Source: a virus. From it: a DNA stretch of 41,231 nt. Shown one piece after another: positions 1 to 41,116 of this stretch. The DNA lies in the IMG/VR virus record IMGVR_UViG_3300045988_102542, positions 1 through 41,231 of that record, one strand, 5' to 3'. The notes below the pieces were generated by a model that was not told where the DNA came from, did not search any database, and saw nothing but the letters and a program-made list of their open reading frames with translations. A program made the position numbers and the translations under genes. Position 1 is the first letter of the stretch; every line of letters begins with the position of its first letter.

Positions 1-52
1 AAAATAAATGGAGCGCCTAGAGGGATTCGAACCCTCGCACCTGGTTCCGGAG
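1..52 (-). repeat. attL core: 52-bp direct repeat, a displaced 3' fragment of a tRNA gene
   Basis: Base-for-base identical to 41180-41231. Minus strand reads T-arm GAGGGTTCGAATCCCTC, acceptor, CCA. Sequence after pos 52 is not tRNA-like (no 5' half). Confidence 0.9.
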
Positions 53-4750: not shown

Positions 4751-5035
4751 ATGCTTAAATTTATAACCGCATTCATGATTATCGTCGGTATCGCTGGGTA
4801 TGCAGTACAGCCAGAGCCACCGTCAATCTCATACGCGGTGAACATTTCAAAAGGCGAAACATTATGGGATGTATGTGACCGCGTTTCCGGCGGGCGGGAA
4901 AATCTCCAAGAGTTAGTCTGGAGAACCGCGAAAGAAAACAATATCAAAGACCCGGGAACATTACAGCCCGGACAAGAAATCGTTGTCAAAGTGAGGGAAA
5001 TCCCGAATGTACGAACTGAAGATACAAGCAGATAA
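4751..5035 (+). CDS. Membrane-anchored LysM-domain protein
   Basis: ATG 4751 after SD GGAG. N-terminal TM segment (FITAFMIIVGIAGYAV), then a LysM-like block ISKGETLWDV..NNIKDPGTLQPGQEIVV. Confidence 0.65.
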   Translation: MLKFITAFMIIVGIAGYAVQPEPPSISYAVNISKGETLWDVCDRVSGGRENLQELVWRTAKENNIKDPGTLQPGQEIVVKVREIPNVRTEDTSR

Positions 5036-5267
5036 CGAGCTGAAACAATACGATATCGCAGTAAAAGGCTTCGACGATAAATTCTTTTCATTAGCAGTTG
5101 CCGTTGCGATTAACGAGCTATACCGCGACCAGTGTCCGCCGGAACTGATAGGAATGATGAGCAGCCGTGATCCAGAAGTCAGAAAAAGAGTTATTGATAC
5201 GATGGAAAAGTGCCTTCTTGCGAAAATGGAGAAAGGAGATCTGGAATGGAAAAAAGAGAATATATAG
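5007..5267 (+). CDS. Hypothetical protein (86 aa)
   Basis: ORF in tight overlap with its neighbours. No domain recognised. Confidence 0.5.
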   Translation: MYELKIQADNELKQYDIAVKGFDDKFFSLAVAVAINELYRDQCPPELIGMMSSRDPEVRKRVIDTMEKCLLAKMEKGDLEWKKENI

Positions 5268-5599
5268 AAGGTCAGTTACTCTACATCGCTCACCCTTACG
5301 GAGGCGATGAGAAGAACAAAGAAAGAGTACAGACATATTTAAAAATGTTGCAAGCGAAATACCCAGAAAAAACATTGTTTTCCCCATTGCACAATTGGGG
5401 ATATGCACCATATGACAAGGAGCATCAGCATAAGCCGATGAAAGATTGTCTTGAAGTACTGCAGCGATGCAACGCGCTTATCCTCTGCGGAAACTGGAGA
5501 GAAAGCCGAGGTTGTAATCAGGAATATGCCGCTGCCTATGTAATGGATATGCAAATCTATGAAATAAAACCGACGGGGGAAATATGCAGCGTAGACTGA
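5246..5599 (+). CDS. DUF4406 / nucleoside 2-deoxyribosyltransferase-like protein
   Basis: ATG 5246 after SD GGAG. LFSPLHNWG and CNALILCGNWRESRGCNQEYAAA resemble this fold family (from memory). Confidence 0.45.
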   Translation: MEKREYIEGQLLYIAHPYGGDEKNKERVQTYLKMLQAKYPEKTLFSPLHNWGYAPYDKEHQHKPMKDCLEVLQRCNALILCGNWRESRGCNQEYAAAYVMDMQIYEIKPTGEICSVD

Positions 5600-37519: not shown

Positions 37520-38161
37520 ATGACATTCTTTCAAAATCTCAAAAGAAAAATAAAAAAGTACGGCAAACCACCGTATCTGTGGGGCGGATTTGTTACATGC
37601 GTTTTTGTCTTAGACTTGATAGACTTTGCCGAATACTTCTGCCGAACTTCTCTCAATCTCTTAGACAAATGGGAATCAAAGACAGTCGTAAGCGTTGTGC
37701 TGATGTACATCTTGTCATTTATTAACAGTGCATACGGGGTTGTGCTCAACGCTTATTTTTGGCTGATTATCATTGACATTTCTACACGCTGGCTGGCTAT
37801 CGGTTATCAATATCTTGTAGATAAAGGCATGGATCCCGATTACTTAACAACGAGAGAAAAGCTATACGGTATTATTCTTGCGTTCAGCGCCAAAAGGCTA
37901 AAATCGAAAATCATGCTGTGGGGGTTTCTGACAAAATTTATTCTCTTCACAATTCTCATTCTTACAGCTTCGCAGATTGACACGGTTTTATCGGCAATAG
38001 AAATACCGTTGTCATGGCCGGTACTCAAATTCATGTTCGGCTATATCTGCTACAACGAGATATTGTCGATTTGTGAGAATTTGAGAGACGCAGGAAATCA
38101 GCACATCGACAAGTTGATAACGCTGCTTGACAACAATATTTTTGCAAAACTCAAGAAATAA
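37520..38161 (+). CDS. Holin-like multi-pass membrane protein
   Basis: At least four hydrophobic segments. C-terminal YICYNEILSICENLRDAG resembles the E..SI.EN motif of LL-H-type holins. Lies immediately upstream of the amidase. Confidence 0.6.
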   Translation: MTFFQNLKRKIKKYGKPPYLWGGFVTCVFVLDLIDFAEYFCRTSLNLLDKWESKTVVSVVLMYILSFINSAYGVVLNAYFWLIIIDISTRWLAIGYQYLVDKGMDPDYLTTREKLYGIILAFSAKRLKSKIMLWGFLTKFILFTILILTASQIDTVLSAIEIPLSWPVLKFMFGYICYNEILSICENLRDAGNQHIDKLITLLDNNIFAKLKK

Positions 38162-38180: not shown

Positions 38181-38194
38181 AGATGGAGGTATTT

Positions 38195-38719
38195 ATGACA
38201 ATAGCCGAATTTAAACAAGAGCTCATTGACAAAAGAAGCTATTTTTATCAATTCCCGTGGCCGGCTACTACATACGGACACTGGTCGGCCGGACGGTACT
38301 TCACAACGTTTAACGACTATCATTTTAATGTTGACGGAGACGGTGAAATCATCTACACAAGACCGCTCGACGAAGTACCGCGGGCAACTTGGCACAGGAA
38401 TACAGGCAGTATCGCAATTGCTCTGTGCTGCTGCTATAACGCCCGTCCAGATGACTTGGGAGAATACCCGCCTACGGAGGCACAGATTGAAACGCTGGCG
38501 AAGATGTTTGCGGTTATTGCAGATGTTTTCGATAATCCAATTGATAGAGAGCATTTCATGACACACGGTGAAGCGGCTAATGACGACGGCTACGGACTGT
38601 ACAGCGGAGAGCCTGACTGTCGCTGGGATTTAGAGCAGCTCTGTGATCAGGACGAAATCGGGACCGGCGGAGATATTCTCCGCGGAAAAGCGCAGTGGTA
38701 TTTAGAGAACGAGGTGTAA
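38195..38719 (+). CDS. N-acetylmuramoyl-L-alanine amidase (Amidase_2/PGRP-type endolysin), single domain
   Basis: ATG 38195 after SD GGAGG. HWSAGRY..DYHFNVDGDGEI..WHRNTGSIAIAL..PPTEAQIETL pattern. No cell-wall-binding domain. Confidence 0.75.
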   Translation: MTIAEFKQELIDKRSYFYQFPWPATTYGHWSAGRYFTTFNDYHFNVDGDGEIIYTRPLDEVPRATWHRNTGSIAIALCCCYNARPDDLGEYPPTEAQIETLAKMFAVIADVFDNPIDREHFMTHGEAANDDGYGLYSGEPDCRWDLEQLCDQDEIGTGGDILRGKAQWYLENEV

Positions 38720-38720
38720 A

Positions 38721-39104
38721 ATGTATGAGAAGAAAAAGATTATCACTATTGCTTGCGCTGTCTTTGCTGTCTGCGCCGTGCTTGTCTATCTCATATGCAC
38801 AGGCACCGGTGGCAACCGAAACGGTAACAATGCAAAGGACACAGTACGAGAAGCTCAAGAGTACAGCAAGCAATCAGCAGATGCGGTTAGATCTGCTGGA
38901 GAGCAAATTAAATCAGCTGGAGAGCAACTCGACCGAAGCATCTCAAGAGTTGACAGCGCTGCGGAATCAGCTGACAGAGTGCAGAAAAGAATTGATGAGA
39001 ACTCAAGAACAATTGCAGAGTGCAGAGATATCATTAAAGACAGCAGAAGAGAACTTGATGAAGCTGCAGATATCTTTAGACGAGTTGACGAAGAAAATCG
39101 ATGA
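38721..39104 (+). CDS. Alternative-frame N-terminal TM + coiled-coil protein (127 aa)
   Basis: ATG 38721 shares SD GAGGTG with ATG 38725. KKIITIACAVFAVCAVLVYLICTG TM segment, then a charged helical region. High G at codon position 1. Confidence 0.35.
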   Translation: MYEKKKIITIACAVFAVCAVLVYLICTGTGGNRNGNNAKDTVREAQEYSKQSADAVRSAGEQIKSAGEQLDRSISRVDSAAESADRVQKRIDENSRTIAECRDIIKDSRRELDEAADIFRRVDEENR

Positions 39105-39207
39105 CCTGACGCATGACGTGAAGCTTGTGAAACGGCAAAGAAACCTCTGGTCATACATCGCAGGAACAGTGGCAACAGGCTGGCTGGTAGACAGATTAAG
39201 TAATTAA
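38725..39207 (+). CDS. Signal/anchor + coiled-coil + C-terminal TM protein (160 aa)
   Basis: MRRKRLSLLLALSLLSAPCLSISYA/QAP, a long L/Q/E/K heptad region, C-terminal LWSYIAGTVATGWLV. Stop lies 2 nt before a strong terminator. Overlaps an alternative frame. Confidence 0.5.
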   Translation: MRRKRLSLLLALSLLSAPCLSISYAQAPVATETVTMQRTQYEKLKSTASNQQMRLDLLESKLNQLESNSTEASQELTALRNQLTECRKELMRTQEQLQSAEISLKTAEENLMKLQISLDELTKKIDDLTHDVKLVKRQRNLWSYIAGTVATGWLVDRLSN

Positions 39208-39208
39208 C

Positions 39209-39236
39209 GGGGCGGGAAACCGCCCTCTTTTTTTTA
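39209..39236 (+). terminator. Rho-independent terminator of the lysis module
   Basis: GGGCGG-gaaa-CCGCCC followed by TCTTTTTTTT. Confidence 0.85.
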
Positions 39237-39265
39237 TTGCATAAATTACTTTATTATGCTATGAT
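39237..39265 (+). promoter_or_regulatory. Promoter with extended -10
   Basis: TTGCAT (39237-39242), 17-nt spacer ending in TGC, TATGAT (39260-39265). Confidence 0.5.
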
Positions 39266-39271
39266 TTAGTC

Positions 39272-39346
39272 GTCAGGGGGAAACCTCTGTGGGTTTAAAT
39301 AATCTGAAAAAGGAAAAGGAGCAGGGAGAAATCCTTGCTCTTTTTC
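39272..39346 (+). ncRNA. Candidate about 75-nt small RNA (no ORF)
   Basis: Lies between the promoter at 39237-39265 and the terminator GAGCAGGG-agaaat-CCTTGCTC+T5 (39319-39345). 5' hairpin CAGGGG-gaaa-CCTCTG. No ORF longer than 3 codons. Confidence 0.4.
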
Positions 39347-39394
39347 TGTTGCATGATATAAAAAATAATTATAACAAAACATCTTGAAAATGTA

Positions 39395-39423
39395 TTGACT
39401 AATCAAAGATGATATAGTAATAT
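39395..39423 (+). promoter_or_regulatory. Promoter of the cargo operon
   Basis: TTGACT (39395-39400), 17-nt spacer, TAATAT (39418-39423). Located 60 nt upstream of a strong SD and ATG 39484. Confidence 0.5.
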
Positions 39424-39483
39424 ATAATCAAGAAAGGGAAGAACCCCTACAGATTATTTAAAACCACTAAGGAGGAAAACAAA

Positions 39484-39891
39484 ATGAAGTACGAAGTAAA
39501 AATGAGTTGCGGACACACAGAAACAATCCAGTTATTTGGTAAATGCGCAGACCGAGAAAGAAAAATTGAATGGCTTGAAAGATACGGGCTCTGCGAAGAA
39601 TGTAAAAAAGAACAAGCCGCAAAAGAAATAAAAAAAGCAGAAGAAGCAGGACTTCCGGAATTGGAAGGATCCGAAAAGCAGATCGCTTGGGCGGCAAAAA
39701 TCAGAAACGGATTCCTGCCGAAAGCAAAAGAGGCCTTAGAAAGAAACAGCAAAGCACCTTTCGCCAAAGAATGGTACGATTGGTTTGTTAGCCAGACAAA
39801 TGCTTCATATTGGATTGATATCAGAGATGATACTATCCGCGAAATTGTAAAGAACTGGTACGAAACCGTCTATACCAAAAAGGAGGCATAA
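39484..39891 (+). CDS. Hypothetical protein with N-terminal Cys/His (zinc-ribbon-like) cluster
   Basis: SD AAGGAGG. MSCGHTE..C..(16)..CEEC, then LEGSEKQIAWAAKIR. No confident family assignment. Confidence 0.65.
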   Translation: MKYEVKMSCGHTETIQLFGKCADRERKIEWLERYGLCEECKKEQAAKEIKKAEEAGLPELEGSEKQIAWAAKIRNGFLPKAKEALERNSKAPFAKEWYDWFVSQTNASYWIDIRDDTIREIVKNWYETVYTKKEA

Positions 39892-39894
39892 AAA

Positions 39895-40242
39895 ATGAAA
39901 ATTGCAATTACAGATAGAAATAACGAAATCAGGGATCTCAACTATCGGAAAAACGGACTCGATTATACCGAAGACTTGATTGGCTTCGGTATAATGCCGG
40001 CGTATAACGATAATGTCGACGCATATGAAATGAAAGAAGAGGAATATAACTGGTGGAAAAACCTCATTGCGATGCAAGAACGCTGTGATGAAATGGAAGA
40101 AGAAATTGATGATCAAGACGCCATTGAAGATATGAAAGAACAGTGTGGAAATACCGATCTTGAAGACAGCATAAGACAGTATAAGTATCTGCTTGAAGAA
40201 TATATTGAGAGCAGAAAGGAGAATGAGGATGAAAGAAAATAA
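39895..40242 (+). CDS. Highly acidic hypothetical protein (115 aa)
   Basis: SD AAGGAGG. About one third D/E residues (..CDEMEEEIDDQDAIEDMKEQ..). Confidence 0.65.
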   Translation: MKIAITDRNNEIRDLNYRKNGLDYTEDLIGFGIMPAYNDNVDAYEMKEEEYNWWKNLIAMQERCDEMEEEIDDQDAIEDMKEQCGNTDLEDSIRQYKYLLEEYIESRKENEDERK

Positions 40243-41008
40243 AACGGGCTGGGGCGGGCGCCGTAAGGGCGCAGGGGCAAAAAGAACACTGCCTCCGGGC
40301 GCCCGGGTGCGGTCCGTCAAGATGACGGATGAAGAATTATTGAAAATTAAAAAAGTTTTAAATGAATCAAGGAGGAATAAAGCCATGTTTAAACTGTATG
40401 GAATGAAAGATGTTAAGAAAGGAATTTTGTTCAATATCGAGGGGAGCCCGAACGGAGTGATCGCCGTCGCTACCGCATTGAAACCTGGACTGAATGAAAG
40501 AGTAGAGCTTGTCGATGATAGATTTAGAACAAGGTTCAATGTTTATGTAAGCACCGAACCACCTGCCAATTCCCGGGTAAAAAAATCAATGATCGGTGAA
40601 ACTGTTCTTATCGGCAGCGGTAACGATCTAAACGATTTGAAAGAAATAGAAACATACGGATTGGTCAGAATTAACATATATAAAACTTCAGACAGGATTC
40701 ATGTCCATGTAGAAGAGTTGGATACAGGGGCGATTACGGTGACAGGAGAAGGTACAGACTGGGACATCGAAGAAAATAATGGACGTTTCAAGAATATCAA
40801 TGACTATATCGATTGCTTTGTCCGGAATAAAGAAAATGTAAAATCTATAAAAAGGATCTCTAACGATACAATAGAGATCATCTGGTACGATGCAGAATTT
40901 AAGGGTTATATGAGATCAAAACATCAGTTTTGCGTGACGAAAGATCTAATCGGAACAGTCACGCTCGACATGGACGTCGTGAGAAAAAATGACGTAGATA
41001 AAGCGTAA
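40229..41008 (+). CDS. Hypothetical protein: basic RHH-like N-terminus + unknown 207-aa domain
   Basis: ATG 40229 after SD AAAGGAG. N-terminus GWGGRRKGAGAKR..VRSVKMTDEELLKIKKVL. In-frame internal ATG 40385 has its own SD AAGGAGG. Confidence 0.6.
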   Translation: MKENKTGWGGRRKGAGAKRTLPPGARVRSVKMTDEELLKIKKVLNESRRNKAMFKLYGMKDVKKGILFNIEGSPNGVIAVATALKPGLNERVELVDDRFRTRFNVYVSTEPPANSRVKKSMIGETVLIGSGNDLNDLKEIETYGLVRINIYKTSDRIHVHVEELDTGAITVTGEGTDWDIEENNGRFKNINDYIDCFVRNKENVKSIKRISNDTIEIIWYDAEFKGYMRSKHQFCVTKDLIGTVTLDMDVVRKNDVDKA

Positions 41009-41011
41009 TTC

Positions 41012-41045
41012 AAAAAGAGCGGTAATGAAAAAAGAGCGGTAATGA
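41012..41045 (+). repeat. Perfect 17-bp tandem duplication
   Basis: AAAAAGAGCGGTAATGA at 41012-41028 and again at 41029-41045. Confidence 0.9.
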
Positions 41046-41060
41046 TATCGCTCTTTAATC
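41033..41060 (+). terminator. Terminator-like hairpin after the cargo operon
   Basis: AGAGCG-gtaatgatat-CGCTCT followed by TTAATCTTTTT. Confidence 0.5.
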
Positions 41061-41096: not shown

Positions 41097-41116
41097 TGCT
41101 CCACAAACTGCTCCAC
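41097..41116. promoter_or_regulatory. Candidate integrase arm-type sites (TGCTCCAC x2)
   Basis: 20-mer TGCTCCACAAACTGCTCCAC, identical to 184-203. Confidence 0.45.

Follow-up and report, generated by a model that had tools for sequence, protein, structure and literature searches.

An operon of three small genes (g1, g2, and g3) lies between the lysis genes and the right attachment site (attR) of a prophage of Dialister, a genus common in the human gut and mouth, and it raises the question of what these genes do and whether they belong together. We analyzed the complete IMG/VR virus record IMGVR_UViG_3300045988_102542, a stretch of 41,231 nucleotides (nt) that is referred to below as the window. 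The initial annotation, which was made from the letters of this DNA without database searches, had put the trio forward as an undescribed system, possibly for defense or lysogenic conversion. Our preferred reading, to which we assign a probability of roughly 0.55, is that the trio is the current load of a hypervariable anti-defense island of the anti-CRISPR (acr) type that is exchanged among Dialister phages. Counter-defense is favored over defense because the proteins have no match in PADLOC, the island has an acr-type layout, and the phage is heavily targeted by a type I-F CRISPR system. The core features of the operon are as follows.

39395..39423, + strand: P2, the sigma-70-like operon promoter (TTGACT at 39395-39400, 17-nt spacer, TAATAT at 39418-39423; consensus scan)
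39484..39891, + strand: g1, 135 amino acids (aa), with the Shine-Dalgarno sequence AAGGAGG at 39469-39475
39895..40242, + strand: g2, 115 aa, with the Shine-Dalgarno sequence AAGGAGG at 39880-39886
40229..41008, + strand: g3, 259 aa when counted from the ATG at 40229; GGAG precedes this start by 7 nt
40229-40384, + strand: N-terminal module of g3 (residues 1-52), the terminal element of the island, with WGGxRxGAGxKxxLP...TDxE and a helix
41031..41056, + strand: intrinsic terminator of the operon (terminator scan)

All of the sequence features first described for the operon are present, namely its position downstream of the lysis terminator, its own promoter, its Shine-Dalgarno sequences, and its own terminator. 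Only 3 nt separate g1 from g2, whereas g2 and g3 overlap by 14 nt, and g3 has alternative starts at 40223 and 40193. Over nine loci, the 280 nt preceding g1 show 89% conservation, even where the flanking genes differ. Each of the three proteins also has conserved homologs, and both observations indicate that the unit is more than a product of chance.

The association of the three genes was surveyed by searching all fetched loci with the three proteins (tblastn), combined with a scan for the conserved upstream RNA described below. The full trio was found in near-identical relatives only. Among the fetched g1 contigs, which were the best 80 of 333, g2 and g3 accompany g1 in its closest relatives only, and across the survey g2 was found without g1 and g3 without g1 or g2. 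Because the trio does not co-occur elsewhere, which is the finding that the initial annotation itself had named as speaking against its proposal, the reading of a three-gene system fails. What survives of that proposal is that the three are real cargo genes; they are not inherited together, and g1 is recognizable. Thus, the three genes are interchangeable cassettes of a variable cargo island and do not constitute a fixed three-gene system. Even if the acr reading should be wrong, this mosaic structure shows that the trio is not a functional unit.

The island itself recurs in approximately 30 Dialister phage loci, in which P2 and the leader of the operon are conserved and are followed by a changing set of genes drawn from at least 10 cassette families of small orphan open reading frames (ORFans). 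The first gene is g1 or encodes a 66-aa, a 91-aa (very acidic), or a 99-aa protein, and the position after it is taken by g2 or by genes for unrelated proteins of 85, 100, 115, 119, or 290 aa. In every one of these loci, the N-terminal module of g3 closes the island, either fused to the g3 body or standing alone, and a standalone module is then followed by a gene for an HNH-endonuclease-type zinc-finger/AP2 protein (220 aa) or by the terminase genes for TerS and TerL. Searches with the other cassettes against Pfam, PHROG, and PDB returned no match, with the sole exception of the 220-aa HNH-type protein. The layout of the island is of the acr-aca type: the promoter and the 3′ element are conserved, and the small ORFans between them, which are often acidic, vary. 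In order, the frame would comprise a small RNA (sRNA) with its promoter, P1; P2; a leader that begins with a hairpin and whose ribosome-binding site is complementary to the sRNA; one to four swappable genes; and a closing module of ∼50 aa. The island is located at the prophage end in the window phage and in locus L005 and between the lysis and packaging genes in L008, L011, and L012. In L092, a gene for an N6/N4 DNA methyltransferase (PF01555, E = 2e-33; 272-aa open reading frame [ORF]) lies after g3, ∼1.5 kb downstream of the sRNA element, and this would fit a counter-restriction function at the same hotspot.

The gene that connects this island to known inhibitors is g1. It had no match in Pfam, NCBIfam, or PADLOC and belongs to phrog_16123, a PHROG without known function (PHROGs match, E = 1.8e-29). 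Its homologs form 65 clusters with identities down to 31%, and relatives are encoded in 333 IMG/VR contigs. A family profile (A2) built from 43 members was searched against all PDB sequences and retrieved AcrIF23 (7fia; E = 7.8e-6, with profile positions 56-139 on chain residues 58-129) and four AcrIE7 entries (E = 0.006-0.011); the corresponding hhalign probabilities are 97.1% for AcrIF23 and 96.0% for AcrIE7. The alignments pass through the motifs L-x-G-S-E-K-Q-I-A-W-A-x-x-I-R and A-x-x-W-I-D-x-R. At the level of sequence profiles, g1 is therefore a distant homolog of AcrIF23 and AcrIE7, both of them validated anti-CRISPRs with an action at the Cas3 step, and no more than a putative member of either family. 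The statement that none of the three proteins resembles a described family thus stands for g2 and most of g3, as judged with Pfam, PHROGs, PADLOC, NCBIfam, PDB sequences, and Foldseek, and has to be withdrawn for g1, whose motif LEGSEKQIAWAAKIR is common to AcrIF23 and AcrIE7.

The architecture of the protein is that of an N-terminal C-H-C-C zinc ribbon (residues 1-45) followed by a helical domain with GSEKQIAWAxxIR and WIDxR, and the AlphaFold2 model has a mean predicted confidence (pLDDT) of 88.9. The metal ligands C9, H11, C37, and C40 are conserved and C21 is not, which corrects the N-terminal cluster as first described. With AcrIE7 residues 1-50 placed on g1 residues 60-115, K65 of g1 aligns with K6 of AcrIE7 and R114 with R49; K65 is conserved in 43/43 family members and R114 in 36/43. 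Mutants of AcrIE7 at K6/R49 lose single-stranded DNA (ssDNA) binding, and their protection of DNA from Cas3 is lost or reduced (PMC12002350). AcrIF23 binds the type I-F nuclease Cas2/3 and blocks cleavage while promoting DNA binding (PMC9270243). By analogy, P2 would drive a counter-defense operon that includes g1, the helical domain of which (K65, R114) may bind the displaced single strand of the R-loop and/or Cas2/3 and would thereby block DNA degradation by the host type I-F system. The acidic g2 and the body of g3 may be further inhibitors. Inhibition, like the time at which the operon would be expressed, is something that we infer, and we put the odds that g1 is a type I inhibitor just short of even.

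The gene neighborhoods of g1 homologs bear on this assignment. Long proteins (370-460 aa) with a g1-type N terminus, followed by a SNF2-family helicase gene and then a PAPS-reductase/DUF3440 gene, are encoded in L036 (3815-7875), L013, L037, L045, and L061, and a gene for an Arc-like ribbon-helix-helix (RHH) protein is located downstream of some g1 homologs. A 2026 preprint describes "distant homologs of acrIF23" in acr-aca operons beside helicases, nucleases, restriction-modification systems, and PAPS reductases and reports that RHH regulators most often accompany AcrIF23 (10.64898/2026.07.27.740549). The preprint agrees with our reading of g1 because the same neighbors, SNF2 with PAPS_reduct/DUF3440 and the Arc-like RHH gene, are seen with g1 homologs. 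In an annotated phage collection, a search with the island DNA gave no match, and a search with the g1 protein gave unannotated hypothetical proteins only.

The alternative closest to the initial annotation is that the operon is a moron for defense or superinfection exclusion, expressed in the lysogen to protect the host or alter its phenotype. The location between lysis genes and attR, the own promoter, and the terminators are classic for morons, and the description of the trio as insulated accessory cargo with its own promoter and terminator between these landmarks was accurate. Defense hotspots typically have variable cassettes as well. In Rhodobacter phage RcapMu (L119), moreover, a g1 homolog, RcapMu4, belongs to the lysogeny operon and is located between the repressor gene and the left end, downstream of the repressor; this is a prophage-end position of lysogen-expressed genes, and genes at this position of a Mu-like phage are expected to be expressed in the lysogen. 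However, the same island is found in the middle of other Dialister phage contigs, directly upstream of terS and terL, and hence is not bound to the prophage end. None of g1, g2, and g3 matches a model of PADLOC-DB 2.0 at E values up to 1, the only detectable homology is to anti-CRISPR proteins, and the combination of small acidic ORFans and a conserved terminal module is more characteristic of counter-defense loci. A defensive role of this kind is therefore unlikely, and the evidence points to counter-defense instead.

For an anti-defense island, the relevant defense should be apparent in the host. Relatives of the window phage come from Dialister invisus, with a complete type I-F locus (cas1, cas2-3, and csy1-4) whose array repeat is GTTAACTGCCGCATAGGTAGTTTAGAAA. 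In the first arrays examined, three spacers match the window, each with a 5′-CC protospacer-adjacent motif (PAM). Scanning gut metagenomes with the I-F repeat yielded 120 arrays (in L086-L088 and L121-L240) and 1,688 unique spacers, which were counted as matching if they aligned over their full length with ≤5 mismatches. In total, 256/1688 spacers (15%) match the window at positions spread from 190 to 41155, and the CC PAM of type I-F is present for 197/256 (77%) of these. The window phage lineage is thus a principal target of the Dialister type I-F system, and with 15% of the sampled unique spacers matching one phage, the phage-host conflict is unusually visible. Because the lineage is such a target, an inhibitor of the Cas2/3 step would be valuable to the phage. 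The interval 39215-39900, which includes the sRNA candidate, P2, and g1, has no spacer match, where ∼4 would be expected for 256 matches over 41 kb; g2 and g3 are targeted. This gap is at most suggestive.

Some relatives are connected with the same system in a second way, since they are integrated within the 5′ end of the type I-F cas1 gene (L001-L004, L086-L088, L205, and L206, compared with the uninterrupted L141). The junction is at ∼6955 in L001 and at ∼5930 in L141, and identity with L141 starts at cas1 codons 22-24. The sequence upstream of the junction is that of the phage and contains the g3 terminator as well as a stop codon in frame, so that the native promoter and the first ∼21 codons are displaced. 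The insertion is present in at least 9 of the 36 cas1 copies in the fetched loci, and one translated ORF, P0134, is a chimera of Cas1(1-24) and the g3 end. The phages inserted in cas1 carry a g3 island without the sRNA, g1, or g2.

The remaining two proteins are ORFans of different kinds. In g2, which had been described as about one-third Asp and Glu, these residues make up 34/115 (30%), close to that description, and the isoelectric point is 4.19. Its homologs form 17 clusters, and searches of Pfam, PHROGs, PADLOC, NCBIfam, and PDB sequences returned no significant family, defense, or structure match; g2 is an acidic ORFan and an interchangeable cargo cassette. Homologs of g3 are confined to 33 clusters from gut metagenomes, none of them below 56% identity, with one member annotated as the Dialister invisus protein WP_276697567.1, and no match to g3 was found in representative genomes. 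Beyond residue 52, g3 is a mosaic ORFan body in which the alignment reveals two middle-domain and two C-terminal variants in differing combinations. The AlphaFold2 model has a mean pLDDT of 45 and is confident for residues 180-259 only, and Foldseek returned nothing for it from PDB or BFVD at E values up to 1e-3.

The N-terminal module of g3 has a history of its own. An exhaustive hidden Markov model search of 1.84 billion representative proteins found full-length g3 restricted to a small family, whereas residues 1-52 have ∼75 remote homologs in the same set, most of them standalone proteins of 46-75 aa and some joined to unrelated bodies at one end or the other. The consensus reads wGGxRxGAGRKxxLPxGAxxRxxxxTDxExxKVKxxLxxLR. 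In distant genomes, the module is located in or near the 3′ end of runs of small ORFan genes. It is, accordingly, a mobile unit. The initial annotation had suggested that the g3 N terminus was RHH-like, which no profile test bears out: the module has no helix-turn-helix (HTH) or RHH match in Pfam and no match in PDB, a single member of 47 matches MobC_2 (3.5e-4), and hhalign against Arc-like RHH gives 0.07%. We tentatively propose, at somewhat less than even odds, that this basic module is a regulator of the locus. It would bind DNA or RNA and act as an autorepressor of P2, analogous to Aca proteins, AcrIIA1, and AcrIF24. The half-sites CTTGA (39383-39387) and TCAAG (39429-39433) around P2 are invariant; together with TTGAC.AATCAA, the CTTGA...TCAAG pair flanks or overlaps P2 and forms a putative operator, the elements of which are short and partly coincide with the -35 consensus.

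The conserved region preceding g1 contains further elements. The initial annotation began the unit at 39395, where P2 is indeed found, but a second promoter and an sRNA candidate upstream (39237-39346) belong to it as well. The elements of this region are as follows.

39237..39265, + strand: P1, the promoter of the sRNA candidate (TTGCAT at 39237-39242, 17-nt spacer, TATGAT at 39260-39265); the hexamers are kept and the spacer varies
39270..39346, + strand: sRNA candidate of ∼77 nt (estimated ends), consisting of a hairpin at the 5′ end (39274-39289), a seed that is single stranded, and a hairpin terminator (39319-39340) with T5 after it
39436..39447, + strand: 5′-proximal hairpin of the leader, with a G:C stem of 3-4 bp and a loop of 5-6 nt
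39450..39472, + strand: leader segment complementary to sRNA positions 39284-39306, overlapping the Shine-Dalgarno sequence of g1 (39469-39475)

The sRNA candidate has a fold energy of -34.2 kcal/mol (z = -5.3), its terminator stem contains a G.U to U.G swap in L012, and 25 IMG/VR contigs contain the element. Rfam gave no significant match, the best being SpF25 at E = 0.21, under the gathering threshold. P2 is kept in every variant of the island, including those without the sRNA. The stems of the leader hairpin vary with their pairing kept (GGGG/CCCC, GGGC/GCCC, and GGAC/GTCC), and the fold is weak in the window sequence alone. The inverted repeat between the sRNA and the leader is 23 nt long and 87% complementary; the predicted duplex has an energy of -36.8 kcal/mol, compared with -22.1 ± 3.9 kcal/mol for shuffles, and 1 in 1,000 shuffled leaders does as well. 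In the whole window, the leader is the best non-self target of the sRNA seed. Among island promoters with full context, the sRNA and its leader target are both present in 26 loci and both absent from 7, and the sRNA alone is present in 1, counts that are not independent since the loci are related. The sRNA may thus pair with the leader over the Shine-Dalgarno sequence and limit translation of the first cistron. We consider the chances even that it is a real, leader-directed regulator.

Complementarity between an sRNA and the ribosome-binding region of the first cistron, with the two elements present or absent together, is also what would be seen in an addiction module in which an sRNA antitoxin restrains a toxic first gene and stabilizes the prophage. 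Type I toxins, however, are usually short hydrophobic peptides, and none of the cassettes is one, nor does any of them resemble a known toxin. Moreover, because the first gene varies (g1 or the genes for the 66-, 91-, and 99-aa proteins) while the sRNA and leader are constant, the RNA would control the operon and not a particular toxin. An RNA-controlled toxin is accordingly very improbable. Two other roles for the sRNA were considered. A mimic of a CRISPR repeat (an RNA anti-CRISPR, or Racr) was suggested by its 32-nt hairpin with a handle, which looks type I-C-like, and this idea was dropped in favor of complementarity to the leader because a degenerate pattern had 0 matches in 185,579 representative genomes, with no such array found there, and because the Dialister I-F repeat is unrelated. 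Targeting of the host cas operon was also rejected, as the best duplexes in the cas region of L086 are weak and have large internal loops.

Several observations weigh against an anti-defense island with g1 as a Cas3-step inhibitor. As a single sequence, g1 did not retrieve AcrIF23 by phmmer. When the g1 model was compared by Foldseek, 7fia ranked second without significance (E = 1.6; TM score, 0.27-0.32; 74 columns at 26% identity), and no AcrIE7 chain was among the matches; AcrIE7 is in full length a seven-helix bundle of ∼106 aa, of which the first 50 residues are aligned, and AlphaFold models of AcrIE7 depart from its crystal structure (PMC12002350). The loop of AcrIF23 that binds Cas2/3 (residues 17-28), which is needed for binding and inhibition, lies outside the region homologous to g1, where g1 has its zinc ribbon. 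Many g1 homologs are long fusion proteins adjoining helicases, so that the domain may have its role in other DNA transactions. The g3 module is not an HTH domain and not demonstrably an RHH one, and its operator is a guess. In some phages, the standalone module is directly upstream of HNH or TerS genes, which also fits a role in packaging or late gene expression. Self-targeting lysogens were not found among the loci, and the sole same-locus spacer match (L141) is in a second array. The relatives that adjoin the I-F locus lack g1. Finally, the compared loci are from related phages, and the co-occurrence counts are therefore not independent.

Part of these observations could be accommodated if g1 and the basic g3 module were housekeeping proteins for DNA handling or regulation in replication, packaging, or late transcription, with the variable genes as fillers. 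The long g1 homologs that precede a SNF2 helicase gene and a PAPS-reductase/DUF3440 gene would suit such proteins, as would the finding that in several phages a standalone module immediately precedes an HNH-type or TerS gene. In the window phage, however, 22 kb separate the module from TerS on the prophage map, and the window contains no second copy of g1 or of the g3 module, near TerS or elsewhere. Among close relatives, the island varies and is dispensable, with g1 and g2 both missing from some of them, and the helicase and PAPS-reductase neighbors have themselves been reported within acr-aca operons (10.64898/2026.07.27.740549). A housekeeping function is thus quite unlikely, and the anti-defense island remains our preferred reading.

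The frame in which the island sits is well defined. Because positions 1-52 are identical to positions 41180-41231, the window represents a complete prophage from attachment site (att) to attachment site, and its ends are 52-bp direct repeats derived from a tRNA gene; the location at the attR end given initially is thereby confirmed. The neighbors confirmed by Pfam are integrase (207-1283), TerS, TerL, holin (37520-38161), and amidase (38183-38719). The boundaries of the region are as follows.

39209..39226, + strand: intrinsic terminator that ends the lysis cassette and bounds the island upstream (terminator scan); kept in 9 loci
41180..41231, no strand assigned: attR core, identical to window positions 1-52 (attL); 3′ part of a minus-strand tRNA gene (partial tRNA match)

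Additional features were noted in this region. The 14-nt sequence AAGAGCGGTAATGA occurs as a tandem duplicate (41015-41028 and 41032-41045), the second copy forming the 5′ arm of the operon terminator. The 19-nt sequence GCTCCACAAACTGCTCCAC, which contains an internal GCTCCAC repeat, occurs once in each att arm (185-203 and 41098-41116) and could be an arm-type site at which the integrase or an excision factor binds. Where the lysis cassette ends, two long ORFs (38695-39207 and 38721-39104) overlap in different frames, and both are open in L001 as well (5016-5507 and 5000-5404). The ORF of 170 aa has a signal- or lipoprotein-like N terminus, a coiled coil, and a hydrophobic C-terminal segment, and that of 127 aa has a transmembrane segment at its N terminus; they may form a spanin-like pair, as would suit a diderm host among the Negativicutes.

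As kinds, acr-type loci and distant AcrIF23 homologs are already known. What is new here is the host lineage, the zinc-ribbon form that links AcrIF23 and AcrIE7 via a shared putative ssDNA-binding motif, the non-HTH/non-RHH 3′ module, the leader-complementary sRNA candidate, and the set of ORFan cassettes. We know of no anti-CRISPRs in Negativicutes generally, and a literature search for anti-CRISPRs of Dialister found no paper. If the anti-defense reading is correct, the island would provide a compact catalog of ∼10 inhibitor candidates, its mini-module could serve as a search handle for counter-defense loci as aca genes did, and sRNA control over such a locus would be a first case. The zinc-ribbon relative would then join the "novel-fold" proteins AcrIF23 and AcrIE7 in one superfamily around the putative ssDNA-binding motif, and this link would suggest a shared mechanism at the Cas3 step. 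A more far-reaching version holds that the island is an acr locus controlled by a trans-acting sRNA that masks the ribosome-binding site and by a ∼47-aa mini-regulator that is neither HTH nor RHH (Gly/Arg arm, strand, and one helix); that g2, the g3 body, and several of the other ∼10 cassettes are new families of inhibitors of type I-F or other defenses in Negativicutes; and that the lineage alternatively disarms the system by integration into cas1. Taken as a whole, this version is rather unlikely.

Comparison with characterized systems places these elements in context. With AcrIF23 (PDB 7FIA; PMC9270243), g1 shares the helical core (AcrIF23 residues 58-129) and the motifs L-x-G-(S/T)-x-(K/R)-Q-x-x-WA-x-x-IR and (A)-x-(F/W)-WI-(D/E)-x-R, and AcrIF23 blocks the Cas2/3 step of type I-F, the type of system that targets the window phage, as is proposed for g1. 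In contrast, AcrIF23 has a long loop with the Cas2/3-binding residues 17-28 where g1 has the N-terminal C-H-C-C zinc ribbon, and it was characterized with a Pseudomonas system, whereas g1 is found in phages of Negativicutes. With AcrIE7, which inhibits types I-E and I-C and binds R-loop ssDNA (PMC12002350), the likeness extends over the first 50 residues and includes the correspondence of K6/R49 to K65/R114; unlike in g1, however, there is no zinc ribbon, about half of AcrIE7 aligns, and the profile E values are modest (0.006-0.011).

The sRNA candidate and the cas1 insertions have looser parallels. Like Racr, the solitary repeat units that act as RNA anti-CRISPRs (PMC10651486), the sRNA is a small structured RNA in a putative counter-defense locus, and its hairpin with 3′ flank superficially resembles a 32-nt type I-C-like repeat. 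Unlike Racr, it is complementary to the leader of its own operon and has no relation to the host repeat. To our knowledge, acr loci have not been described as having an upstream sRNA that can pair with the leader. Varble et al. are said to have reported in 2021 that prophages of Streptococcus pyogenes integrate into CRISPR loci as a form of immune evasion. Relatives of the window phage with a g3 island are similarly located in the 5′ end of type I-F cas1; the difference is that the start of the cas operon and not an array repeat is targeted, and that this applies to the relatives only, as the window phage itself is located in a tRNA gene.

The closest parallel to the island as a whole is provided by acr loci. 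The acr locus of Listeria prophages is located downstream of the lysin gene, and the island shares this post-lysis position at the prophage end. AcrIIA1 is a fusion of regulator and inhibitor, and AcrIF24 is another (PMC9001735). The 3′ module of the island differs from the RHH protein Aca14 of acr-aca operons in being neither HTH nor detectably RHH, and its operator is putative. In their strong promoter, changing small inhibitor genes, conserved 3′ gene, and fusions of module and body, acr-aca operons otherwise resemble the island, and distant AcrIF23 homologs are frequent members of them (10.64898/2026.07.27.740549).

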